Shown: one piece after another, positions 10,609 to 57,405 of the stretch
How positions within the stretch are numbered: position 1 is the stretch's first letter
How the letters are laid out: each line of letters opens with the position of its first letter
Assembly (NCBI RefSeq): GCF_055900595.2
Contig: NZ_CM148325.1
Strand: one strand, 5' to 3'
DNA: 64,000 nt
Notes under the pieces: generated by a model
What the model saw: only the letters and a program-made list of their open reading frames with translations
The model's database searches: none
Told to the model about the DNA's origin: nothing
Position numbers and translations under genes: made by a program

Positions 10609-10877
10609 TCGTTCCTCCTGACACTGCGTCTATCGAACACATTTTTCGCCAGTGTGGCGTTCAGTAAGATAAAGCCGCTTCGCATTCCATGCTAATATAG
10701 GCCAACGCAATTCATATAGCCGTTGATACCTAATGTGATTACACTAGTAAAATATATTGTTACTTTACTATCGTTTAGGTGCGCTGAATGAATCTGCGCC
10801 CTGAATTCTGGTAAAAAACATTATCGTAAATTACCATTTCTTTCAACAGCTTACTAGTAAACAAGAAGTTAGCCTCC

Positions 10878-35569: not shown

Positions 35570-36318
35570 TGGCGGAACTCAGCGATCAGGAGATGCTGCG
35601 CTACAACCGGCAAATCATTCTGCGCGGTTTTGATTTTGACGGTCAGGAGGCGCTAAAAGATTCTCGTGTGCTGATCGTCGGCCTCGGTGGACTCGGCTGT
35701 GCAGCTTCGCAGTATCTGGCAAGCGCCGGTGTCGGCAACCTGACACTGCTCGACTTCGACACGGTTTCGCTCTCGAATCTGCAACGCCAGACTCTGCACA
35801 GTGATGCCACGGTCGGGCAACCGAAGGTGGAATCCGCCCGTGACGCCCTGACGCGGATCAACCCACATATTGCGATTACACCCGTCAATGCACTGCTAGA
35901 TGACGCAGAACTTGCAGCATTGATTGCTGAACACGATCTGGTGCTCGACTGTACGGATAACGTTGCGGTACGCAATCAACTGAACGCAGGCTGTTTTGCC
36001 GCAAAGGTGCCGCTGGTTTCCGGGGCGGCAATTCGTATGGAAGGGCAAATCACGGTCTTCACTTATCAGGACGGCGAGCCTTGCTACCGCTGCCTTAGCC
36101 GTTTGTTTGGCGAAAATGCGTTAACCTGCGTAGAAGCAGGCGTGATGGCACCGTTGATCGGGGTGATTGGTTCGTTGCAGGCAATGGAGGCGATCAAACT
36201 GCTGGCAGGTTATGGCAAACCTGCCAGCGGCAAAATCATCATGTACGATGCGATGACTTGCCAGTTTCGCGAAATGAAACTGATGCGTAATCCGGGGTGC
36301 GAGGTGTGCGGGCAGTAA
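35569..36318 (+). CDS. moeB: molybdopterin-synthase adenylyltransferase MoeB
   Basis: 249 aa; ThiF/MoeB Rossmann GLGGLG motif and C-terminal CxxC pairs; start overlaps moeA stop. Confidence 0.94.
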   Translation: MAELSDQEMLRYNRQIILRGFDFDGQEALKDSRVLIVGLGGLGCAASQYLASAGVGNLTLLDFDTVSLSNLQRQTLHSDATVGQPKVESARDALTRINPHIAITPVNALLDDAELAALIAEHDLVLDCTDNVAVRNQLNAGCFAAKVPLVSGAAIRMEGQITVFTYQDGEPCYRCLSRLFGENALTCVEAGVMAPLIGVIGSLQAMEAIKLLAGYGKPASGKIIMYDAMTCQFREMKLMRNPGCEVCGQ

Positions 36319-36331
36319 TTGCCAGCCCCAG

Positions 36332-36411
36332 GCCTGATAAGTCGCGGCAAGCGTCGCATCAGGCATTTGCTCCAGACGCCAGATGCGGCGTGAACGCCTT
36401 ATCTGGCCTAC
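36332..36411. repeat. REP element cluster
   Basis: GCCTGATAAGTCGCGGCAAGCGTCGCATCAGGC and GCCAGATGCGGCGTGAACGCCTTATCTGGCCTAC. Confidence 0.8.
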
Positions 36412-36496
36412 GGTTCGGGCGCAGATTTCCAGGCGCGGCAAGCGTTGGTGCACTCCACCATGTCATCAGCAATTGATGAGGATGCAGAACGTCCGG

Positions 36497-37159
36497 TTAA
36501 ATCGACGTTCTGCCAAAAGCCCCCTGCCAGTCCTGCTCAAACTTCGCCACGGCGGCATCAACTGCCGGATAGCTAATCATCTGCTGCGCCACATCCAGTG
36601 GCAGCGTGATTGATTCACATCCTGCCAGTAAGCAATCCAGCGCCTGACGCGGGGTTTTAAAACTCGCGGCTAACACTTTCGCCTGCGGCGCATGCATTTT
36701 CAATAACTGGTGTAAATCGGTCACAGTTTGAATACCGCTACCGCCCTGAGCATCAATTCGGTTGACGTAAGGTGCAACGTACTCCGCACCTGCCAGCGCC
36801 GACAGCAGCCCTTGTGCCGCGCCATACACTGCCGTACCCAGCGTCGGAATACCTTCTGCTTTTAACATTTTAATAGCAGCCAGCCCCTCGGCAGTCACCG
36901 GAACTTTCACCACGATATCTGCAATAATAGAACGCAGTTGACGTGCATCATTCACCATCCCTTCGGCAGTGGTAGCCATTACCTGGGCAAACAGACGCCC
37001 CTGACCGCCCATCGCTTCGTGAAGCTCCGGAAGTACCACCTCCAGCGGTTTTTTACCCGCGGCGATAATACTTGGGTTAGTGGTCACACCCGCCAGCGGA
37101 AAAATACGTGACAGTGTCTTCACCGCAACAACGTCTGAAGTATCCAGATACAGTTCCAT
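36497..37159 (-). CDS. fsaA: fructose-6-phosphate aldolase 1
   Basis: 220 aa from ATG at 37159 ([14 protein letters not shown]...), transaldolase-like. Confidence 0.92.
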
Positions 37160-37289
37160 AACCATCCTCAAAATGTACTTTTTGTCTGAATGTAGACTAT
37201 CACGGGAAAACTCTCTGAACAGTTGACGCACATCAATCTAACTTTCATTCGAAAGTATTTTAATGTTTGAACGAAACAGAGAGGCAACT

Positions 37290-38189
37290 ATGATTTTCAA
37301 TATTCAGCGCTACTCGACCCATGACGGCCCCGGTATCCGCACGGTCGTTTTTCTTAAAGGCTGTTCACTGGGCTGCCGCTGGTGTCAGAACCCGGAAAGC
37401 CGCGCCCGCACGCAGGATCTGCTGTATGACGCACGTCTGTGCCTGGAAGGCTGCGAGCTGTGCGCTAAGGCCGCGCCGGAAGCGATTGAGCGCGCGCTGA
37501 ATGGTTTGCTTATTCATCGGGAAAAGTTAACCCCGGAGCATCTGACGGCGTTAACCGACTGCTGCCCGACACAGGCGTTAACCGTGTGTGGTGAAGTGAA
37601 AAGCGTTGAGGAGATCATGGCGACCGTTCTGCGCGACAAACCGTTTTACGATCGCAGCGGCGGCGGCTTAACGCTTTCCGGTGGTGAGCCGTTTATGCAG
37701 CCGGAAATGGCGATGGGGCTACTGCAAACCAGCCACGAAGCCGGTATTCATACTGCGGTAGAAACCTGTCTGCATGTGCCGTGGAAATACATCGCCCCTT
37801 CTCTGCCGTATATCGATCTGTTTCTTGCCGATTTAAAACACGTTGCCGACGTGCCGTTTAAACAGTGGACCGACGGTAACGCCGCCAGAGTGCTGGATAA
37901 CCTGAAAAAACTCGCAGCGGCGGGGAAAAAAATCATCATCCGCGTGCCGTTGATACAGGGCTTTAATGCCGATGAAACCTCTGTGAAAGCCATTACCGAT
38001 TTTGCCGCCGACGAGCTGCACGTCGGCGAAATTCATTTCCTGCCCTACCACACGTTGGGCATCAACAAATATCACTTACTTAATCTGCCCTATGACGCCC
38101 CGGAAAAACCGCTTGATGCGCCAGAACTGCTCGACTTTGCCCTGCAGTATGCCTGCCAGAAAGGGTTAACCGCGACCTTACGAGGATAA
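37290..38189 (+). CDS. ybiY: glycyl-radical enzyme activating protein YbiY (PflE)
   Basis: 299 aa from ATG at 37290; radical SAM CxxxCxxC (CSLGCRWC) plus extra Cys-rich ferredoxin-like insert. Confidence 0.9.
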
Positions 38190-38194
38190 CAACC

Positions 38195-40627
38195 ATGACC
38201 ACACTGAAACTGGACACGCTCAGCGACCGCATTAAAGCGCACAAAAATGCGCTGGTGAATATTGTGAAACCGCCGGTCTGTACCGAGCGCGCGCAGCACT
38301 ATACCGAGATGTATCAACAACATCTCGATAAGCCGATCCCGGTACGTCGCGCGCTGGCGCTGGCCCATCACCTGGCGAATCGCACCATCTGGATCAAACA
38401 CGATGAGTTGATCATCGGCAACCAGGCCAGCGAAGTTCGCGCCGCGCCGATCTTCCCGGAATATACCGTCTCCTGGATCGAAAAAGAGATTGATGATCTG
38501 GCGGATCGTCCGGGTGCAGGTTTTGCGGTGAGCGAAGAGAACAAACGCGTTCTGCATGAAGTGTGCCCTTGGTGGCGCGGTCAGACGGTACAGGATCGCT
38601 GCTATGGCATGTTTACCGATGAGCAAAAAGGCCTGCTGGCGACCGGTATCATTAAAGCGGAAGGTAATATGACCTCCGGCGATGCGCACCTGGCGGTCAA
38701 TTTCCCACTGTTGCTGGAAAAAGGGCTTGATGGTCTGCGCGAGAAAGTGGCGGAGCGCCGCATGCGTATTAACCTGACCGTGCTGGAAGATCTGCACGGC
38801 GAGCAGTTCCTGAAAGCGATTGATATCGTGTTGGTGGCGGTCAGTGAACATATTGAACGTTTCGCTGCCCTGGCGCGTGAAATGGCCGCTACCGAACCCC
38901 GCGAAAGCCGTCGCGATGAACTGCTGGCGATGGCCGAAAACTGCGACCTTATCGCCCACCAGCCGCCGCAGACTTTCTGGCAGGCGCTGCAACTGTGCTA
39001 CTTCATCCAGTTGATTTTGCAGATCGAATCCAACGGACACTCGGTATCGTTTGGTCGTATGGACCAGTATCTCTACCCGTACTATCGCCGTGATGTTGAA
39101 CTGAACCAGACACTGGATCGTGAACACGCCATCGAGATGCTGCATAGCTGCTGGTTAAAATTGCTGGAAGTGAACAAGATCCGCTCCGGCTCACACTCAA
39201 AAGCCTCTGCGGGAAGTCCGCTGTATCAGAACGTCACCATTGGCGGGCAAAATCTGGTTGATGGTCAACCAATGGACGCGGTGAATCCACTCTCTTACGC
39301 GATCCTCGAATCCTGCGGTCGCCTGCGTTCGACGCAGCCTAACCTCAGCGTGCGCTACCACGCGGGAATGAGTAACGATTTCCTCGATGCCTGTGTGCAG
39401 GTGATCCGCTGCGGCTTCGGGATGCCGGCGTTCAACAACGACGAAATTGTCATCCCGGAATTTATTAAACTCGGTATTGAACCGCAGGACGCTTACGACT
39501 ACGCAGCGATTGGTTGTATCGAAACCGCCGTCGGTGGCAAATGGGGCTATCGCTGCACCGGGATGAGCTTTATCAACTTCGCCCGCGTGATGCTGGCGGC
39601 GCTGGAAGGCGGTCGTGATGCCACCAGCGGCAAAGTGTTCCTGCCACAAGAAAAAGCGTTGTCAGCGGGTAACTTCAACAACTTCGATGAAGTGATGGAC
39701 GCGTGGGACACGCAAATCCGTTACTACACCCGTAAATCAATCGAAATCGAATATGTCGTCGACACCATGCTGGAAGAGAACGTGCACGATATTCTCTGCT
39801 CGGCGCTGGTGGATGACTGCATTGAGCGAGCGAAAAGTATCAAGCAAGGCGGCGCGAAATATGACTGGGTATCGGGCCTGCAGGTCGGCATTGCTAACCT
39901 CGGCAACAGCCTGGCGGCAGTGAAGAAACTGGTGTTTGAACAGGGCGCGATTGGTCAGCAACAACTGGCTGCCGCACTGGCGGATGACTTCGACGGCCTG
40001 ACGCACGAGCAGCTGCGTCAGCGGCTGATTAACGGCGCGCCGAAGTACGGCAACGACGATGATACTGTCGATACGCTGCTGGCTCGCGCTTATCAGACCT
40101 ATATCGACGAACTGAAGCAGTACCATAATCCGCGCTACGGTCGTGGTCCGATTGGCGGCAACTATTACGCAGGTACGTCGTCTATCTCCGCTAACGTACC
40201 GTTTGGCGCGCAGACTATGGCAACGCCGGACGGGCGTAAAGCCCACACCCCGCTGGCAGAAGGCGCAAGCCCGGCTTCCGGTACTGATCATCTTGGCCCT
40301 ACTGCGGTCATTGGCTCGGTGGGTAAACTGCCTACGGCAGCGATTCTCGGCGGCGTGTTGCTCAACCAGAAACTGAATCCGGCAACGCTGGAGAACGAAT
40401 CTGACAAGCAGAAACTGATGATCCTGCTACGTACCTTCTTTGAGGTGCATAAAGGCTGGCATATTCAGTACAACATCGTTTCCCGCGAAACGCTGCTGGA
40501 AGCGAAAAAACATCCGGATCAGTACCGCGATCTGGTGGTGCGCGTAGCGGGTTATTCCGCCTTCTTCACTGCGCTCTCTCCAGACGCACAGGACGATATC
40601 ATCGCCCGTACTGAACATATGCTGTAA
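38195..40627 (+). CDS. ybiW: glycyl radical enzyme YbiW (PflF, pyruvate formate-lyase-like)
   Basis: 810 aa; C-terminal glycyl radical motif RVAGYSA; immediately downstream of its activase. Confidence 0.92.
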
Positions 40628-40772
40628 TCTCCTTCGCCCGGCGGCGTCGTCGCCGGGCCAAATCATTCACATCATCAATTCCGCTCTCACTTTCATTCGA
40701 AATATAATTTGTGCTCTGCGTCACATTGTTATTACACTGTTACGGTTTCATTTTCGAGCCAGGAGCACACCT

Positions 40773-41588
40773 ATGAGCGTAAAAGTTATCGTCACAGACA
40801 TGGACGGTACTTTTCTTAACGACGCCAAAACGTACAACCAACCACGTTTTATGGCGCAGTATCAGGAACTTAAAAAGCGCGGCATTGAGTTCGTTGTCGC
40901 CAGCGGTAATCAGTATTACCAGCTTATTTCGTTCTTTCCTGAGCTAAAGGATGAGATCTCTTTTGTCGCGGAAAACGGCGCACTGGTTTACGAACATGGC
41001 AAGCAACTGTTCCACGGCGAACTGACCCGACATGAATCAAGAGTTGTCATTGGTGAACTGCTGAAAGACAAGCAGCTCAATTTTGTTGCCTGCGGTTTGC
41101 AAAGCGCGTATGTCAGTGAGAATGCGCCAGAAGCATTCGTCGCGCTAATGGCAAAACACTACCATCGTCTGAAACCTGTGAAAGATTACCAGGATATTGA
41201 TGATGTACTGTTCAAGTTTTCGCTCAACCTGCCTGACGAACAAATCCCGTTAGTGATCGACAAACTGCATATTACGCTCGATGGCATTATGAAGCCGGTT
41301 ACCAGTGGTTTTGGCTTTATCGACCTGATTATTCCTGGCCTGCATAAAGCGAATGGTATTTCGCGGTTACTGAAACGCTGGGATCTGTCACCGCAAAATG
41401 TGGTAGCGATTGGCGACAGCGGTAACGATGCGGAGATGCTGAAAATGGCGCGTTATTCCTTTGCGATGGGCAATGCTGCGGAAAACATTAAACAAATCTC
41501 CCGTTACGCTACCGATGATAATAATCATGAAGGCGCGCTGAATGTGATTCAGGCGGTGCTGGATAACACCGCTCCTTTCAATAAGTAA
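40773..41588 (+). CDS. ybiV: HAD-family sugar phosphatase YbiV (SupH)
   Basis: 271 aa; DMDGTF motif; clear paralog of YbjI. Confidence 0.92.
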
Positions 41589-41739
41589 CCTTTTCCCGGC
41601 CGGAGCAATCGTTCCGGCATCTCTCTTTTTTGCTCACTTTGTGCACTTACTCAAGATTTTCATCTTGCGTTAACTTATTTTTAACTTAAAGTATCAATCA
41701 TAACTATTTTTACTTTCGAACGAAAGTTGTGAGGTTGAT

Positions 41740-42999
41740 ATGACTTTTACCTATGAGACACTGCCAACAGATGCGAAAACGGCTATCCGTAAGATGAAAG
41801 CGGAGCTGCGACAACAGATCGGCGATTTACAACAGGTCTTCGATAAACTCTCTGCAAAAATCGAAGCACGTGTAGCAGAAATAGACGCCCTCAAAGGGCA
41901 AGGATTACCGGTTTGGCCGGAAGTCCCATATAGCGACGTTGCAGCAGGTACAGTGAGTGAAGCCACGCGCAATGAAATTAAACGTCGCGGCTGTGCAGTA
42001 ATTAAAGGCCATTTCCCCCGCGAACAGGCACTGGCATGGGATCGCGCAATGCTTGACTATCTTGATGCCAATCATTTTGATGATGTTTATAAAGGTCCCG
42101 GCGACAGCTTCTTTGGATCGCTGGAGGCATCTCGTCCTGAAATCTACCCTATTTACTGGTCGCAGGCACAAATGCAGGCGCGACAAAGTGACAATATGGC
42201 GGCGGTGCAATCTTTCCTTAACCGCCTGTGGAAGTCTGAAAGCAACGGCAGGCAGTGGTTTGATCCCGATATTAGCGTGATCTATCCGGACAGGATCCGC
42301 CGCCGCCCACCAGGCACGACGTCTAAAGGTCTGGGTGCACACACTGATTCTGGGGCGCTGGAACGTTGGTTATTACCCGCTTATCAGCGTGTTTTTGCCC
42401 ATGTTTTCAACGGTAATGTCGACGATTACGATCCGTGGGATGCTGCATACCGTACTGATGTTGAAGAGTACACGGTGGATAACACCACAAAATGTTCGGT
42501 GTTCCGCACTTTTCAAGGCTGGACGGCGCTTTCCGATATGTTACCAGGACAGGGATTATTGCATGTGGTGCCAATCCCGGAAGCGATGGCGTATGTTTTA
42601 TTGCGCCCACTGCTGGATGACGTACCGGACGATGAGTTGTGTGGGGTCGCTCCTGGCAAAGTTCTGCCCATTTCAGAGAAATGGCATCCACTACTGATTA
42701 AAGCACTCACTTCCATTCCAGCTATTACAGCGGGGGATTCCGTCTGGTGGCACTGCGACGTGATCCACTCCGTCGCACCGGTAAATAATCAACAAGGCTG
42801 GGGGAATGTGATGTATATCCCTGCCGCGCCGATGTGTGAGAAAAACCGGGCTTATGCGCATAACGTTAGGAAAGCACTGGAAAAAGGGGCATCACCGGGC
42901 GATTTCCCTCGAGAAGATTATGAAGCAAACTGGGATGGCCGATTTACGCTGGATGATCTGAACAATCACGGTAAGCGCGCGCTGGGCATGGATGTTTGA
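41740..42999 (+). CDS. ybiU: DUF1479 family protein YbiU
   Basis: 419 aa ORF in the expected position; exact start not verified. Confidence 0.85.
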   Translation: MTFTYETLPTDAKTAIRKMKAELRQQIGDLQQVFDKLSAKIEARVAEIDALKGQGLPVWPEVPYSDVAAGTVSEATRNEIKRRGCAVIKGHFPREQALAWDRAMLDYLDANHFDDVYKGPGDSFFGSLEASRPEIYPIYWSQAQMQARQSDNMAAVQSFLNRLWKSESNGRQWFDPDISVIYPDRIRRRPPGTTSKGLGAHTDSGALERWLLPAYQRVFAHVFNGNVDDYDPWDAAYRTDVEEYTVDNTTKCSVFRTFQGWTALSDMLPGQGLLHVVPIPEAMAYVLLRPLLDDVPDDELCGVAPGKVLPISEKWHPLLIKALTSIPAITAGDSVWWHCDVIHSVAPVNNQQGWGNVMYIPAAPMCEKNRAYAHNVRKALEKGASPGDFPREDYEANWDGRFTLDDLNNHGKRALGMDV

Positions 43000-43089
43000 G
43001 AGGTGATGGATTAGTAGAAGTGAATTGATGTGAGGTTAAGAAAGCAGGTTCGGTGTTGCTCAGATTGCTGACAAAGTGCGCTTTGTTCA

Positions 43090-43187
43090 TGCCGGATGCG
43101 GCGTGACTGTCTTATCCGACCTACAAAATCATGCAAATTCAATATATTGCGATACACTGTCAGGCCTGATAAGCGTAGCGCATCAGG
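43090..43187. repeat. REP element cluster
   Basis: GCCGGATGCGGCGTGACTGTCTTATCCGACCTAC and TCAGGCCTGATAAGCGTAGCGCATCAGGC. Confidence 0.8.
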
Positions 43188-43248
43188 CAATTTTGCATTT
43201 GTCATCAGTTTCAGTAGCCCTGACCCTATCAGGGCTACTGATAATAAC

Positions 43249-44841
43249 TTACTCGATCCCTTTACTACGCAGGTAATCTTCGTAATTACCGCTAAAGTCG
43301 ATCACGCGTTCCGGGGTGATTTCCAGAATTCGGGTCGCCAGGGAGCTTACAAACTCACGGTCGTGAGAAACAAAGATCAGCGTGCCCTGATACAGTTCCA
43401 GCGCCATGTTCAGCGACTCAATGGATTCCATATCAAGGTGGTTGGTCGGTTCGTCCATGATCAGAATGTTCGGCTTCTGCATCATTAACTTACCAAACAG
43501 CATCCGCCCTTTTTCTCCACCGGAAAGCACTTTCGCTGGCTTTTTGATGTCGTCCTGGCTGAACAGCAAACGACCGAGAATGCTGCGTACCGCCTGCTCG
43601 TCATCGCCTTCCTGCTTCCACTGACTCATCCATTCGAATACGGTCAGATCATTTTCGAACTCATATTCGTGGTCCTGAGCATAGTAACCAATGCGCGCGT
43701 TTTCAGACCATTTTACGGTGCCACTGTCCGGTTGCAGATCGCCCACCAACGTTTTCAGCAGCGTTGATTTACCGACGCCGTTGGTACCCAATACCGCCAG
43801 TTTTTCGCCCACTTCCAGCAGCAGGTTGAGATTTTTAAACAGGGGACCGTTATCAAACCCTTTGGTCAGACCTTCCACTTCCAGCGCGTTACGGAACAGT
43901 TTCTTATCCTGTTCAAAACGGATGAACGGGTTCTGACGGCTGGAGGCTTTCACCTCTTCAAGTTTGATTTTATCAATCTGGCGTGCGCGCGAAGTTGCCT
44001 GGCGAGATTTCGAGGCGTTGGCACTAAAGCGGCTAACGAAAGATTGCAACTCAGCAATCTGCGCTTTCTTCTTGGCGTTATCAGCCAGCAGACGTTCACG
44101 CGCCTGAGTCGCCGCCGTCATGTACTCATCGTAGTTGCCCGGATAAACGCGCAGTTCACCGTAATCCAGATCCGCCATGTGGGTACAAACCATGTTAAGG
44201 AAGTGACGGTCGTGCGAGATGATGATCATGGTGCTGTCACGCTCGTTCAGCACCTGTTCCAGCCAACGAATGGTGTCGATGTCGAGGTTGTTGGTCGGTT
44301 CGTCGAGCAGGAGAATGTCCGGATCAGCAAACAGCGCCTGCGCCAGCAGCACACGCAGCTTCCAGCCAGGAGCAACTTCACTCATCGGGCCGTAGTGCTG
44401 TTCCACTGGAATTCCCACGCCAAGCAACAGTTCACCGGCGCGAGCTTCCGCAGAGTAACCGTCCATTTCGCCGTATTTCACTTCCAGATCGGCCACTTTA
44501 TAGCCGTCTTCTTCACTCATTTCCGGCAAAGCATAGATACGGTCGCGCTCCTGCTTCACTTCCCACAACTCTTTATGCCCCATGATCACCGTATCCAGCA
44601 CGGTGAACTCTTCAAAGGCAAACTGATCCTGACGCAATTTACCAATGCGCTCGTTGGGATCGAGGGAAACGTTACCCAGCGTCGGCTCTAAGTCGCCGCC
44701 GAGGATCTTCATAAAGGTGGATTTACCACTACCGTTCGCGCCAATCAGGCCGTAACGGTTGCCGCCGCCAAATTTGACGGAAATGTTTTCAAACAACGGC
44801 TTACTGCCGAACTGCATGGTGACGTTACTGGAAACTAACAC
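43249..44841 (-). CDS. ybiT: ABC-F family ATPase YbiT
   Basis: 530 aa with two ABC cassettes ([18 protein letters not shown]). Confidence 0.93.
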
Positions 44842-45059
44842 AGGCGTATCCTGAAAAGAGATATGACAAACCGCGTATTATGCCATAAGTCTGAAAGAAG
44901 ATCCCGTCCCCCGCTTAAGGTCTACACTCTTCCCAAAGGCAAAAAATGTGATTTCGTACACATCTGATTTCACTGTGAGCTGGAATGAACTTATAATGCG
45001 CTTCCAATACTCTAATATTCTCAACCCAATGGCCTGCCAGGCACAAAATCTCGCTTAAC

Positions 45060-45980
45060 ATGAATATGAAATTGAAAACATTATTCGCAGCGGCCTTCGC
45101 TGTTGTCGGCTTTTGCAGTACCGCCTCTGCGGTAACTTATCCTCTGCCAACCGACGGGAGTCGCCTGGTTGGTCAGAATCAGGTGATCACCATTCCTGAA
45201 GGTAACACTCAGCCGCTGGAGTATTTTGCCGCCGAGTACCAAATGGGTCTTTCCAACATGATGGAAGCTAACCCGGGTGTGGATACCTTCCTGCCGAAAG
45301 GCGGTACTGTACTGAACATTCCGCAGCAGCTGATCCTGCCGGATACCGTTCATGAAGGCATTGTCATTAACAGCGCAGAGATGCGTCTCTATTACTATCC
45401 GAAAGGCAGCAACACCGTTATCGTGCTGCCCATCGGCATTGGTCAGTTAGGCAAAGACACGCCTATCAACTGGACCACCAAAGTTGAGCGTAAAAAAGCA
45501 GGCCCTACCTGGACGCCGACCGCCAAAATGCACGCAGAGTACCGCGCTGCGGGCGAACCGCTTCCGGCTGTCGTTCCGGCAGGTCCGGATAACCCGATGG
45601 GGCTGTATGCACTCTACATCGGTCGCCTGTACGCTATCCATGGCACCAACGCCAACTTCGGTATCGGCCTGCGTGTAAGTCATGGTTGTGTGCGTCTGCG
45701 TAACGAAGACATCAAATTCCTGTTCGAGAAAGTGCCGGTCGGTACTCGCGTACAGTTTATTGATGAGCCGGTAAAAGCGACCACCGAGCCAGACGGCAGC
45801 CGTTATATTGAAGTCCATAACCCGCTGTCTACCACCGAAGCCCAGTTTGAAGGTCAGGAAATTGTGCCAATTACCCTGACCAAGAGCGTGCAGACAGTAA
45901 CTGGTCAGCCTGATGTGGATCAGGTCGTGCTGGATGAAGCGATCAAAAATCGTTCCGGGATGCCGGTTCGTCTGAATTAA
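45060..45980 (+). CDS. ldtB: L,D-transpeptidase LdtB (YbiS)
   Basis: 306 aa; signal peptide; YkuD catalytic SHGCVRL. Confidence 0.93.
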
Positions 45981-45998
45981 TCTTCAAAACTTAAATTA

Positions 45999-46027
45999 AA
46001 AGGCGGACTCATAATCCGCCTTTTTTA
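45999..46027. terminator. bidirectional rho-independent terminator between ldtB and ybiR
   Basis: stem AGGCGGA/TCCGCCT flanked by A-run and T-run. Confidence 0.75.
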
Positions 46028-46038
46028 TTTGCCAGCAC

Positions 46039-47157
46039 CTAGCTGGCCGGGAACATAACTAACAAAACGTATCCCACCAGCGCCGCCCACAACAGCATCG
46101 GTATCGAATAAAGATGAAAACGCCACCAGATACGGCGATCGTTCGCCATCCGTAATGCAATCAAATTTGCCAGCGATCCGGGTAATAAACCAAAGCCACC
46201 GACGTTTACCGCCCATGCCAGTAATAAAGACGGTGGCACATAATTGAGGAGCAAAATCGTGCTCGGCACATTACTGATCACCTGCGATAAACCAATTGCC
46301 GTTAACCATAATCCGGGTTCGGATAAATGGCTCACATTGCTCAACACGCCCTGCAAAGCTGGCAGTTGGGTCAGCAAATGGACGTCGATAAACATCGCCA
46401 TAAATACCAGCAGCAGCGTCCAGTCCACGCTGATCACCACGCGACGAGCCAGCAGCGCAAAGCCCGCCGCTACAATCACCAGTCCCCACAGCTCTTGTTT
46501 TAACTCCAGCGCCGTCAGAAAGACGATATACAGCCCCAGACAACTCCACACCAGCCGCGGTTTCCACTCAGGTGTTTGCGCCCCCGTATGATATTGCAGC
46601 GCCTTTCCAGGGAAACAACACCAGCACAGTAGCAGGAGTGTCAGCATCATTGCGCCAGCCAGCGGTGCCATTTGGGCAATAAACCCGGCAAACGAAAGAC
46701 CAGAACGACCCCAGATAAGAATATTTTGCGGGTTGCCAATCGGCGTCAGTAGCGAACCCGCATTGACTGCTAGCGCCTCAAAAATAATCAGTCGATTAAC
46801 CGGGATCTCACACAGTCTTTTTAGTGTGATTGTCAGCGGAACAACAATAAACAGCGCGACATCGTTGGTCAGAAATGTTGAAAGCAACGCCGCCGCCAGC
46901 ACCATAAACATTGCCAGCCGACGCTCAGTAGCAAAGCGGCGCACCATTTTGCGCCCCAGCACATCAAAATAACCGCTTAACTCCACACCTTTGGTCAGCA
47001 GCATCAGGCCACTGAGGGTGATGATAGTGTGCCAGTCGATAGCAGCAAGCCAGGATTTCGGTGCAAAGGGAACGAAAAAACTTAATCCGATGCCAACAAG
47101 AATTAATAACTGAAAAAAACGATCGCCTTGCAGCGTGCGTAAAAAAGGCAGGCTCAT
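46039..47157 (-). CDS. ybiR: inner membrane transporter YbiR (ArsB/NhaD superfamily)
   Basis: 372 aa polytopic membrane protein; start overlaps mntR stop. Confidence 0.9.
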
Positions 47158-55070: not shown

Positions 55071-55096
55071 GCCTCCCTTTCTTCCGAAAGGGAGGC
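55071..55096 (+). terminator. hairpin downstream of glnQ
   Basis: stem CCTCCCTTT/AAAGGGAGG; no clear T-run. Confidence 0.4.
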
Positions 55097-55179
55097 ACAC
55101 CAGATTCCTCTCATTTAAAATCGCCCCTCCCCCAGCATCTATACTTATCTTTTTGCTCTGTTTTCTCACTGGAGGAGTC

Positions 55180-57405
55180 ATGCGGTGGATCCTGTTCATC
55201 CTCTTCTGCCTGCTGGGCGCACCTGCCCACGCGGTATCCATACCCGGCGTTACAACCACAACGACAACGGACTCAACGACTGAACCGGCCCCGGAACCGG
55301 ATATCGAACAAAAAAAAGCGGCCTATGGCGCACTGGCGGATGTGCTGGATAATGACACCTCGCGTAAAGAGTTGATCGACCAGTTGCGCACCGTCGCCGC
55401 GACGCCCCCTGCGGAACCCGTACCGAAGATCGTGCCGCCGACGCTGGTTGAAGAGCAAACCGTGCTGCAAAAAGTCACCGAAGTCAGCCGCCATTATGGT
55501 GAAGCCCTTTCCGCCCGCTTCGGACAACTTTATCGCAATATCACCGGCTCCCCGCATAAGCCGTTTAATCCACAAACCTTCAGCAATGCGCTGACCCATT
55601 TTTCAATGTTAGCGGTATTAGTGTTTGGTTTTTACTGGCTGATTCGCCTGTGCGCGCTGCCGCTGTATCGCAAAATGGGCCAGTGGGCACGGCAAAAAAA
55701 TCGTGAGCGCAGTAACTGGTTGCAGCTTCCGGCGATGATTATCGGGGCGTTTATTATCGACCTGCTGTTACTGGCACTGACATTATTTGTCGGTCAGGTT
55801 TTAAGCGACAACCTGAATGCGGGCAGTCGCACCATCGCTTTCCAACAAAGTTTGTTTCTCAACGCCTTTGCCCTGATTGAATTTTTCAAAGCCGTACTAC
55901 GCCTGATTTTTTGCCCCAACGTGGCGGAGCTGCGCCCGTTTACGATTCAGGACGAAAGCGCCCGTTACTGGAGTCGTCGCCTGAGCTGGTTAAGCAGCCT
56001 GATTGGGTATGGTCTGATTGTGGCTGTGCCGATTATCTCTAATCAGGTGAATGTGCAAATCGGTGCGCTAGCGAACGTCATCATTATGCTGTGCATGACC
56101 GTCTGGGCGCTGTACCTGATCTTTCGTAATAAAAAAGAGATTACGCAGCATTTGCTCAACTTCGCGGAACACTCGCTGGCCTTTTTCAGCCTGTTTATTC
56201 GCGCTTTTGCGCTGGTGTGGCACTGGTTGGCAAGCGCCTATTTTATCGTGCTGTTTTTCTTTTCGTTGTTCGATCCGGGCAACAGCCTGAAATTTATGAT
56301 GGGTGCAACGGTACGCAGCCTGGCGATTATTGGTATCGCCGCGTTTGTTTCCGGTATGTTTTCCCGCTGGCTGGCGAAAACCATCACTCTCTCGCCACAT
56401 ACTCAGCGTAACTATCCGGAGCTGCAAAAACGGTTGAACGGCTGGCTTTCGGCGGCGCTGAAAACGGCGCGTATTCTGACAGTCTGCGTGGCGGTAATGT
56501 TGCTGTTGAGCGCATGGGGATTGTTCGATTTCTGGAACTGGCTGCAAAACGGCGCGGGGCAGAGAACCGTAGATATCCTGATCCGTATCGCACTCATTCT
56601 TTTCTTCTCGGCGGTTGGCTGGACGGTGCTCGCCAGTTTGATCGAAAACCGGCTGGCTTCGGATATTCATGGCCGCCCGCTACCCAGCGCCCGTACGCGT
56701 ACCCTGCTGACGCTGTTCCGTAACGCGCTGGCGGTGATTATCAGTACCATCACCATCATGATTGTGTTGTCGGAAATCGGCGTTAATATCGCGCCATTGC
56801 TGGCAGGTGCCGGGGCATTAGGTCTGGCTATCTCGTTTGGTTCGCAAACGCTGGTGAAAGATATTATCACCGGGGTATTTATTCAGTTTGAAAACGGCAT
56901 GAACACTGGAGATTTGGTGACTATCGGGCCGTTGACCGGCACTGTGGAACGGATGTCGATTCGCTCCGTGGGCGTACGCCAGGATACCGGGGCGTATCAC
57001 ATCATTCCGTGGTCTTCGATTACCACCTTTGCTAACTTTGTCCGCGGCATTGGTTCGGTAGTGGCAAATTATGATGTTGATCGCCATGAAGATGCTGATA
57101 AAGCCAATCAGGCACTGAAAGATGCGGTAGCGGAATTAATGGAAAACGAAGAAATTCGCGGGTTGATTATCGGTGAACCGAACTTTGCCGGGATTGTCGG
57201 CTTAAGCAATACCGCATTTACACTGCGTGTTTCGTTCACCACGCTGCCACTCAAACAATGGACGGTCCGCTTTGCCCTCGACAGCCAGGTGAAAAAACAT
57301 TTCGACCTGGCGGGCGTTCGCGCGCCAGTGCAGACTTATCAGGTGCTGCCTGCTCCGGGCGCGACCCCGGCTGAACCGTTGCCGCCGGGGGAACCAACGC
57401 TTTAA
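55180..57405 (+). CDS. ybiO: mechanosensitive channel YbiO (MscS family)
   Basis: 741 aa from ATG at 55180 ([18 protein letters not shown] signal peptide); multiple TM helices and C-terminal MscS domain. Confidence 0.9.

Follow-up and report, generated by a model that had tools for sequence, protein, structure and literature searches.

The question raised by this locus is which reaction is catalyzed by the glycyl radical enzyme YbiW, once it has been activated by YbiY, the product of the gene preceding it. We analysed the gene pair within a window of 64,000 nucleotides, the whole stretch of DNA under study, and found that the segment is an intact copy of the ybiY-ybiW gene pair of E. coli, with both genes on the plus strand. 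The genes and the structural element around it, with the sources of their assignment, are as follows.

36497-37159, minus strand: fsaA, fructose-6-phosphate aldolase 1, 220 aa (Pfam TAL_FSA, 1.5e-49; NCBIfam NF009296, 452.7 bits; RefSeq and K-12 annotation)
37290-38189, plus strand: ybiY, glycyl-radical-enzyme activating enzyme, 299 aa (open reading frame list, Pfam, NCBIfam)
38195-40627, plus strand: ybiW, glycyl radical enzyme, 810 aa (open reading frame list, Pfam, NCBIfam; function from the literature)
40636-40658, plus strand: GC-rich hairpin with a 10-bp stem, directly 3' of the ybiW stop (fold energy -21.2 kcal/mol, z = -4.6)
40773-41588, plus strand: ybiV, HAD-IIB (Cof-type) sugar phosphatase, 271 aa (RefSeq, Pfam, NCBIfam)
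41740-42999, plus strand: ybiU, DUF1479/Gig2-like protein, 419 aa (RefSeq, Pfam)

The genes fsaA and ybiY are divergent and separated by 130 bp. The longest frame of ybiY is an ORF of 308 aa (37263-38189, plus strand), and the annotated start at 37290 (MIFNIQ...) gives the protein of 299 aa; this start agrees with RefSeq and K-12, and a Shine-Dalgarno sequence, GAGAGG, ends 6 nt 5' of it. The stop of ybiY and the start of ybiW are 5 nt apart, and the Shine-Dalgarno sequence of ybiW (GAGGA) lies within the 3' end of ybiY. No canonical intrinsic terminator was found after ybiW in the terminator scan, the hairpin at 40636-40658 having no U tract.

The pair is the same as YbiW and YbiY of K-12 (b0823/b0824), from which it diverges only at the lineage level, and the gene order moeAB, fsaA, ybiY, ybiW, ybiV, ybiU, ybiT is that of K-12. 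YbiW is identical to its K-12 counterpart at 803 of 810 residues (nucleotide identity of the gene, 95.6%), and the seven substitutions, at N22, K184, M190, P235, R474, I653 and E769, leave G786, C441, E443 and H165 untouched. There were six differences in YbiY (293/299 identical) and five in FsaA (dN/dS 0.033), and the intergenic region between fsaA and ybiY was identical at 128 of its 130 positions. A search of the PDB matched YbiW to the solved structures 8id7 and 8yjn ('Probable dehydratase YbiW') with 1848 bits. Among 5426 complete E. coli genomes, 5425 carried the pair. The dN/dS against K-12 was 0.022 for ybiW and 0.064 for ybiY. The pair is under strong purifying selection, and because of this near-universal presence and the low dN/dS it is not a chance feature.

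The identification of the two genes in a preliminary description, as a radical SAM activase and an 810-aa glycyl radical enzyme, was borne out by the reading frames and the domain searches. YbiY carries the Pfam domain Radical_SAM and scored 364 bits with TIGR02494, the model for glycyl-radical enzyme activases, against a cut-off of 174. In YbiW, the PFL-like domain (PF02901) covered residues 11-671 (3.5e-208) and was accompanied by Gly_radical (1.5e-32). The C-terminal motif RVAGYSA, also named in that description, occupies residues 783-789 with G786 as the radical glycine; it aligns with RVSGYAV of PflB and RVAGYSA of PflD, and so it is present on alignment too. Judged from these domains and this motif, YbiW is a member of the glycyl radical enzyme superfamily.

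Several labels in databases and in the literature would make YbiW a pyruvate or 2-ketobutyrate formate-lyase, and YbiY an activase like PflA. The K-12 annotation reads 'putative pyruvate formate lyase', 'formate C-acetyltransferase' is attached to PDB 6xs4 and to several homologues, and a paper of 2020 grouped YbiW with PflB, TdcE and PflD as four 'formate acetyltransferases' in an assay of formate release. PflB/PflA and YbiW/YbiY do belong to one superfamily, with PFL-like and Gly_radical domains and a radical-SAM activase in both. However, where PflB has two neighbouring cysteines (ACCVS), YbiW has GCIE, and PflB has no equivalents of the Glu and His residues of YbiW. With the equivalog model of pyruvate formate-lyase, TIGR01255, YbiW scored 161.5 bits, the cut-off being 994.2. 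Its match to PflB in the PDB was confined to the C-terminal part and scored 152 bits, compared to 550 bits over the full length for glycerol dehydratase. There was no focA-like formate channel gene adjacent to ybiYW, and in the paper of 2020 TdcE was the most active enzyme, whereas the text gave no activity value for YbiW. The reaction of PflB is a C-C cleavage with CoA, unlike that of YbiW. A formate-lyase function of YbiW is thus extremely improbable.

The eliminase/dehydratase class of glycyl radical enzymes comprises glycerol dehydratase, propanediol dehydratase, CutC, HypD and IslA, and its mark is a single catalytic Cys with a Glu at +2 (C-x-E); His164 of glycerol dehydratase is the proton donor to the leaving group. 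In YbiW the Cys loop is GCIE (C441, E443), in which C441 aligns with Cys433 of glycerol dehydratase, and H165 aligns with His164; this histidine is shared by the YbiW clade and PflD, and PflB lacks it. By these residues the active site of YbiW is of the eliminase type (C441-x-E443, H165), without the Cys-Cys pair of pyruvate formate-lyase. In NCBIfam, YbiW reached the subfamily model TIGR01774 only and no equivalog model.

The B12-independent glycerol dehydratase of Clostridium butyricum (DhaB1/DhaB2; 1r8w and 1r9d) is the closest solved structure besides YbiW and its near-identical orthologue 6xs4, with 550 bits. It shares with YbiW the radical Gly, Cys-x-Glu, His164 (H165 in YbiW), Tyr339 (Y344) and the motif IESNGHS, and by analogy with what is established for the family the two enzymes would perform the same type of chemistry, in which a hydroxyalkyl radical is formed and a beta C-O elimination follows. 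To some extent these likenesses, as well as the name 'Probable dehydratase YbiW', favour a dehydratase of small diols such as glycerol or 1,2-propanediol. However, Asp447 of glycerol dehydratase is not kept and corresponds to G456 of YbiW, within a gapped segment of 12 residues peculiar to the YbiW clade, where it is retained in members with as little as 46% identity. The genomic context also differs: we found no genes for aldehyde or alcohol dehydrogenases or for microcompartments nearby, and the neighbours that recur encode an aldolase, a sugar phosphatase and a DeoR-type regulator. In YbiW the leaving group would be an ether oxygen in the ring of a sugar phosphate, compared to the hydroxyl of a C3 diol in glycerol dehydratase, and the substrate given for YbiW in the summary in PMC12441222 is a sugar phosphate. 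We regard a small-diol dehydratase as very unlikely.

The function of YbiW and YbiY is already known, having been published in 2024. YbiW cleaves 1,5-anhydroglucitol-6-phosphate to 1-deoxyfructose-6-phosphate (Ma et al., J Am Chem Soc 2024, 146:26187-26197, pmid 39283600, as summarised in a review of 2025, PMC12441222), and the work is also cited by two further papers. The preliminary description had held that the substrate was not firmly established and had named a published biochemical assignment as what would overturn this; with the assignment of 2024, as summarised there, the statement is out of date. Its suggestion that the neighbouring fsaA hints at a sugar-related anaerobic role was right, since the substrate is a sugar phosphate and FsaA is the next enzyme of the pathway. 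Beyond PMC12441222, our literature search on the 1,5-anhydroglucitol pathway yielded nothing further of relevance. What the present analysis establishes is the identity of the genes, their catalytic motifs, their conservation and their genomic context; the substrate and product are taken from the literature, the claim on the substrate resting on the summary in the review and the names of the PDB entries. The sequence tests, on the active site and on the adjacency of fsa, agree with the assignment. We therefore read the segment as a ybiY-ybiW operon in which YbiW is a 1,5-anhydroglucitol-6-phosphate C-O lyase activated by YbiY, with a probability of about 0.9.

The nearest functional parallel is PflD with its activase PflC (PDB 8yjo for PflD). 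PflD is reported, in the same review summary, to cleave 1,5-anhydromannitol-6-phosphate, the C2 epimer (PMC12441222), and it belongs to the same enzyme class and gives the same product as YbiW; the Cys-x-Glu motif and the His loop are common to the two enzymes, and both are encoded beside an FSA-type aldolase. However, the identity is only 37% between YbiW and PflD and 36% between YbiY and PflC. The specificity segments also differ, with TSGDAH in YbiW against DKGQGH in PflD and the 12-residue segment of YbiW against GR-TYGLHDIAMF. In K-12, pflD adjoins fsaB, gldA and PTS genes of its own.

The steps of the reaction, as inferred by analogy with the B12-independent glycerol dehydratase, would be as follows. 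The [4Fe-4S] cluster of YbiY, bound by C25, C29 and C32, together with S-adenosylmethionine, would abstract a hydrogen from Gly786 of YbiW, which would become a stable, oxygen-sensitive glycyl radical. The radical would then move to Cys441, and the resulting thiyl radical would attack 1,5-anhydroglucitol-6-phosphate by taking a hydrogen from its C2. With the help of Glu443 and His165 the C1-O5 ether bond would be eliminated and the ring opened, and the return of the hydrogen would give 1-deoxyfructose-6-phosphate. FsaA reportedly splits this product into glyceraldehyde-3-phosphate and hydroxyacetone, and the steps of FsaA and GldA lead to 1,2-propanediol.

In YbiY, the radical-SAM motif CX3CX2C is located at C25/C29/C32, and it is followed by the extra Cys-rich insert that had been described before and that we confirmed (C51, C55, C58, C91, C92 and C100). 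PflA has no such insert, and the PFLA model matched YbiY from residue 101 onwards only. Among the YbiY proteins of E. coli, Yersinia and Mixta, only C51-x3-C55-x2-C58 and C91-C92-P were conserved, and C100 was not. Two complete CX2CX2CX3C motifs, as for two auxiliary clusters, were not found in YbiY, whereas two other aligned activases carried eight Cys residues. The insert of YbiY thus appears to be partially ferredoxin-like, and one auxiliary cluster is the likelier reading of its cysteines.

The surroundings of the pair were compared among relatives. An fsa gene adjoins ybiYW in five of the six enterobacterial genera checked (E. coli, Yersinia, Mixta, Brenneria and Erwinia). A DeoR-type regulator with 59-65% identity to YciT adjoins the cluster in Yersinia and Mixta, and a regulator of the DeoR family is also found beside it in Brenneria and Erwinia. 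A homologue with 54% identity adjoins a ROK sugar kinase. Another, with 44% identity, was located amid genes like those of acetoin/2-oxoacid-dehydrogenase complexes and was not taken as having the same function.

The region between fsaA and ybiY, and those before ybiV and ybiU, contained the following candidate control elements.

37223-37236, no strand assigned: FNR-like box TTGACGCACATCAA, agreeing with TTGAT-N4-ATCAA at 9 of 10 positions, with its midpoint at 37229.5
37241-37256, no strand assigned: palindrome of 16 bp, ACTTTCATTCGAAAGT, flanked by the FNR-like box and the -10 hexamer, a probable operator of YciT (DeoR family)
37259-37264, plus strand: putative -10 hexamer of the ybiY promoter, TTTAAT, placed by geometry, with a predicted transcription start near 37271
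40689-40704, no strand assigned: second copy of the palindrome, ACTTTCATTCGAAATA, upstream of ybiV, overlapping a perfect TATAAT (40703-40708); the same arrangement occurs in Kosakonia
41712-41727, no strand assigned: third copy, ACTTTCGAACGAAAGT, whose 7-bp arms match perfectly and whose end lies 12 nt upstream of the start codon of ybiU

The centre of the FNR-like box would lie at -41.5 of the putative ybiY promoter and, on the opposite strand, at -40.5 of a putative fsaA promoter, for which the predicted transcription start is near 37189. Its placement is unchanged in Yersinia, Mixta, Brenneria (with a perfect consensus) and Erwinia, a weaker form of the box occurs in Kosakonia, and the -10 position reads TTTAAT, TCAAAT or TTAAAT in five other genera. 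Our promoter model is based on this FNR geometry and on the conservation; a generic sigma-70 scan at the ybiY promoter gave nothing useful (2 sites, with 6.3 expected). From the -41.5 box we infer that FNR may activate ybiY. The ybiY promoter was active anaerobically in a reporter study. Our literature search for ybiY together with FNR found nothing, and a Reg-Seq preprint made no mention of FNR.

The palindrome at 37241-37256 is kept in six enterobacterial genera, and the ybiU orthologues of Mixta, Erwinia and Kosakonia have a site equivalent to 41712-41727 in front of them. The pattern CTTTC-N4-GAAAG was located upstream of ybiY, ybiU and ybiO, and a copy of it with one mismatch upstream of ybiV; there were 8 matches with 2.3 expected. 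In published work, ChIP-exo peaks of YciT were located at ybiY/fsaA, ybiV and ybiO, and YciT was recovered on the ybiY promoter in a DNA pull-down. The conserved 16-bp palindrome is probably the YciT operator, and ybiV, which shares the motif, probably belongs to the same regulon as ybiYW. A scan of the pflD/fsaB cluster of K-12 found no such palindrome. A CRP-like site at 40710-40725 was not above chance (3 matches, with 1.7 expected) and was rejected.

The wider regulon bears on whether 1,5-anhydroglucitol-6-phosphate is the main substrate of YbiW, or a secondary one for a ring-opening lyase whose main substrate would be another anhydro- or deoxy-sugar phosphate related to it. In favour of the latter, the regulon holds two more enzymes without an assigned role, YbiV and YbiU, and the cluster is located beside alpha-amylase-family genes in Mixta and beside a GH31 glycosidase and a sugar transporter in Kosakonia. 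However, E. coli and many gut bacteria grow on 1,5-anhydroglucitol through the YbiW pathway, and the C2 epimer is served by a dedicated paralogue, PflD (both as summarised in PMC12441222). This division of labour speaks for tuned specificity. A different main substrate is therefore improbable, and we retain 1,5-anhydroglucitol-6-phosphate.

The ybiU gene of the window is a rare, divergent allele, whose protein is 81% identical to that of K-12, and in about 20% of E. coli genomes no match to ybiU was obtained. The gene accompanies the cluster in two distinct arrangements, and the palindromic operator motif is common to the ybiU genes of E. coli, Kosakonia, Mixta and Erwinia. The protein has an invariant motif, H201-T-D203 ... 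H338/H343, and may have an oxygenase-type fold. A permissive Pfam scan of YbiU returned no oxygenase family, a literature search for GIG2 together with dioxygenase found nothing, and no recorded function for YbiU was found in the literature searched or the PDB. An AlphaFold model from an alignment of three sequences had a pLDDT of 36, and no structural conclusion was drawn from it. To our knowledge, the published three-enzyme scheme gives no place to ybiV or ybiU.

One may speculate that ybiYW is the anaerobic arm of a larger YciT regulon (fsaA, ybiYW, ybiV and ybiU) with an FNR-driven anaerobic promoter, in which YbiU would act on 1,5-anhydro-sugar phosphates with oxygen and the phosphatase YbiV would be a safety valve. 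A possible reaction of YbiU would be the hydroxylation of C1, converting 1,5-anhydroglucitol-6-phosphate to glucose-6-phosphate. This scheme is suggested by the motif of YbiU, the common operator, the association with the cluster and the aerobic enzyme for 1,5-anhydroglucitol that is noted as missing in the summary in the 2025 review (PMC12441222). It is weakened because the oxygenase-type fold of YbiU is putative and about a fifth of the E. coli genomes are without a ybiU match, and we consider it unlikely.

The names given to ybiYW in RefSeq and NCBIfam are generic, and a preprint (version dated May 2026) lists the genes with 'no functional annotation'. The practical value of the present analysis is therefore an update of the annotation, since these sources still treat the pair as uncharacterised. 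The assignment of 2024 closed a long-standing gap concerning two orphan glycyl radical enzymes of E. coli and the FSA aldolases. 1,5-Anhydroglucitol is a common polyol of the diet and the blood, and ybiYW is the key step in its fermentation by E. coli and other gut bacteria.

The ybiY and ybiW genes occupy exactly the positions given in the preliminary description, 37290-40627. In the ORF list of the window, two frames run in the same direction on the plus strand (37263-38189 and 38195-40627); the annotated ybiY start at 37290 agrees with RefSeq and K-12, and a Shine-Dalgarno sequence, GAGAGG, ends 6 nt 5' of it. The genes of this region are:

36497-37159, minus strand: fsaA, 130 bp from ybiY on the opposite strand
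37290-38189, plus strand: ybiY, 299 aa; Pfam Radical_SAM; NCBIfam TIGR02494 (glycyl-radical enzyme activating protein), 364 bits (cut-off 174)
38195-40627, plus strand: ybiW, 810 aa; Pfam PFL-like (3.5e-208) and Gly_radical (1.5e-32)
40773-41588, plus strand: ybiV, Cof-type HAD sugar phosphatase (Pfam, NCBIfam)
41740-42999, plus strand: ybiU, DUF1479/Gig2-like

With RVAGYSA found at residues 783-789, YbiW is the glycyl radical enzyme it was said to be, and YbiY is likewise a radical SAM activase with a Cys-rich insert: C25, C29 and C32 form the CX3CX2C motif and the insert comes next (C51, C55, C58, C91, C92 and C100). In an alignment of E. coli, Yersinia and Mixta proteins, only C51-x3-C55-x2-C58 and C91-C92-P were kept in the insert (residues 45-105), unlike two other activases of the same alignment, which had two full four-Cys motifs. 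The insert of PflC, the K-12 paralogue of YbiY, is shorter still. This partial set of cysteines would make the YbiY insert a partial ferredoxin-like domain and suggests that one auxiliary Fe-S cluster is likelier than two. Directly 3' of the ybiW stop lies a GC-rich hairpin without a U tract (40636-40658; -21 kcal/mol, z = -4.6), perhaps a partial terminator or an mRNA stabiliser.

The pair and its substrate are already known, and the earlier statement that the substrate was not firmly established is outdated: a publication assigning the substrate, which the preliminary description had named as a refutation, does exist. According to section 5.1 of a 2025 review (PMC12441222), the anaerobic pathways of 1,5-anhydroglucitol and 1,5-anhydromannitol were identified by Ma et al. 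2024 (J Am Chem Soc 146:26187; pmid 39283600), a work cited in two further papers as well. As that section describes it, PTS phosphorylation comes first, 1,5-anhydroglucitol-6-phosphate is then cleaved by YbiW, and 1,5-anhydromannitol-6-phosphate is the substrate of PflD, the K-12 paralogue of YbiW; the two enzymes have a common product, 1-deoxyfructose-6-phosphate, formed in a glycyl-radical-dependent manner, and E. coli and many gut bacteria grow on 1,5-anhydroglucitol by the YbiW route. In the PDB, YbiW of the window matched 'Probable dehydratase YbiW' (8id7 and 8yjn, 1848 bits) and an orthologue (6xs4, 1772 bits), and 'Probable dehydratase PflD' is also present (8yjo). The crystallised YbiW of 8id7 and 8yjn has SAANAR against the native SEENKR (residues 114-117 of YbiW in the window), probably as engineered surface mutations and not as natural variation. 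Ma and colleagues are said to have found that 1-deoxyfructose-6-phosphate is split by FsaA or FsaB into glyceraldehyde-3-phosphate and hydroxyacetone, the latter reportedly being reduced by GldA to 1,2-propanediol.

The active site residues place YbiW in the C-O eliminase class, because its Cys loop, GCIE, has a single catalytic Cys with Glu at +2, its H165 aligned with His164 of the B12-independent glycerol dehydratase, and the IESNGHS and Tyr344 positions are common to these two enzymes, whereas pyruvate formate-lyase (PflB) has ACCVS and no equivalent His. Placing YbiW in the formate-lyase class was rejected, as the PFL equivalog model failed (161.5 bits against 994) and the Cys-loop pattern is unlike that of PflB. 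Asp447 of glycerol dehydratase is not kept in YbiW. The segment TSGDAH and a second one of 12 residues are shared by relatives of YbiW as little as 46% identical to it, and PflD has other sequence at both. These clade-specific segments fit a distinct, larger substrate.

The adjacency of fsaA had been taken as a hint of a sugar-related role, and this part of the earlier interpretation stood together with the gene identities: the published substrate is a sugar phosphate, and fsa lies next to ybiYW in divergent orientation in E. coli, Yersinia, Mixta, Brenneria and Erwinia. It is not adjacent to ybiYW in Kosakonia. The K-12 paralogue cluster has the order gldA-fsaB-ptsA / frwCB-pflD-pflC-frwD, with identities of 37% for YbiW/PflD, 36% for YbiY/PflC and 70% for FsaA/FsaB, and a 54%-identical YbiW homologue adjoins a ROK sugar kinase, a DeoR regulator and a HAD phosphatase. 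Active site, specificity segments and gene context all fit a sugar-phosphate substrate whose product is a substrate of FSA. In Y. enterocolitica, a passage of a 2009 paper places ybiYW between sgrR and sgrS, which connects ybiYW with the response to sugar-phosphate stress.

The fsaA-ybiY intergenic region (37160-37289) is identical to K-12 at 128 of 130 positions, against only 93-96% in the flanking genes, a sign of dense regulatory constraint. The elements considered are:

37196-37201, minus strand: conserved -10-like hexamer, candidate for fsaA
37223-37236: FNR-like box TTGACGCACATCAA, directly upstream of the palindrome and 4 bp from it
37241-37256: 16-bp palindrome ACTTTCATTCGAAAGT, before ybiY/fsaA
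37259-37264, plus strand: candidate ybiY -10 hexamer TTTAAT
40689-40704: near-identical palindrome upstream of ybiV, overlapping a perfect TATAAT
41712-41727: near-identical palindrome upstream of ybiU
55077-55090: related CTTTCTTCCGAAAG, just upstream of a 750-aa ORF (55153-57405), taken as putative ybiO by position relative to K-12

The palindrome core, CTTTC-N4-GAAAG, occurs eight times in the window (2.3 expected). ChIP-exo peaks of the DeoR-family regulator YciT have been published at ybiY/fsaA, ybiV and ybiO, and the palindrome loci match them at ybiY/fsaA, ybiV and the putative ybiO. In a Reg-Seq preprint (reporter and pull-down), the ybiY promoter was anaerobically active and bound by YciT as a repressor. 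The palindrome at this promoter is kept in all six enterobacterial genera, and in those that have orthologues of ybiU or ybiV it stands before these genes as well. A DeoR-family gene lies within the cluster in Yersinia, Mixta, Brenneria and Erwinia, its product being 65% (Yersinia) and 59% (Mixta) identical to YciT. A variant palindrome, CTTTCGATCGAAA, upstream of the YciT-like gene of Yersinia similis (10686-10700 of the comparison locus L004) suggests that this gene may be autoregulated.

The FNR-like box is centred at -41.5 of the putative ybiY promoter to which the TTTAAT hexamer belongs and at -40.5 for fsaA; the other genera have this arrangement of box, spacing and hexamer too, and the box of Brenneria is perfect (TTGATATAAATCAA). 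FNR may be a natural candidate for an activator footprint reported without a named protein in the Reg-Seq preprint, because the footprint precedes the preprint's YciT site by about 15 bp, an aerobic lysate was used and FNR is nowhere mentioned. Our literature search found no paper linking ybiY with FNR. A CRP-like site, TGTGCTCTGCGTCACA (40710-40725, 9/10 matches), closely follows the ybiV -10 hexamer on its downstream side, such matches being not above chance in the window.

The ybiU gene shares the palindrome, a probable operator, with ybiY and travels with the cluster in two arrangements, after ybiV (E. coli, Kosakonia) or between the DeoR gene and fsa (Mixta, Erwinia). Structural-genomics structures of YbiU exist, and no function was recorded in PDB entry names or in papers from the literature search. 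Its invariant residues are H201-T-D203 and H338/H343; speculatively, YbiU could be an oxygen-dependent counterpart of YbiW. Our structure model of it was unusable (pLDDT 36). The window allele is 81% identical to K-12 in protein and about 68-77% in DNA; only 16 E. coli genomes carried a match of 99% identity or more, 4086 had one of 60-80%, and about 1100 gave none. The ybiU gene is unusually polymorphic and the window allele is rare and divergent, in contrast to ybiYW, which is nearly universal in E. coli.

The ybiYW segment was matched in 5425 of 5426 complete E. coli genomes, with 95-99% identity in most. Compared with K-12, ybiW has 95.6% nucleotide identity and seven amino-acid differences (dN/dS 0.022), and ybiY has 96.3% and six (dN/dS 0.064). 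Neither gene is disrupted, purifying selection on both is strong, and the seven YbiW substitutions leave G786, C441, E443 and H165 untouched. Identity to K-12 is about 95-97% throughout 32000-47000, and only eight complete genomes were at least 99% identical over ybiYW (99.9%; e.g. strain Z0117EC0005, from a dog in South Korea); the window therefore represents an uncommon lineage of E. coli.

By analogy with glycerol dehydratase, and from established knowledge of that enzyme, we propose that the G786 radical would be made on YbiW by YbiY and that a C441 thiyl radical would then take H from C2 of the substrate. The resulting ketyl-type radical would lose the adjacent C1-O5 ether bond, with E443 as base and H165 as acid, and the C1 radical would regain H from C441 to give the 2-keto, 1-methyl product, 1-deoxyfructose-6-phosphate. 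Both C2 epimers yield this same product, which would explain the existence of two paralogous enzymes, YbiW and PflD.
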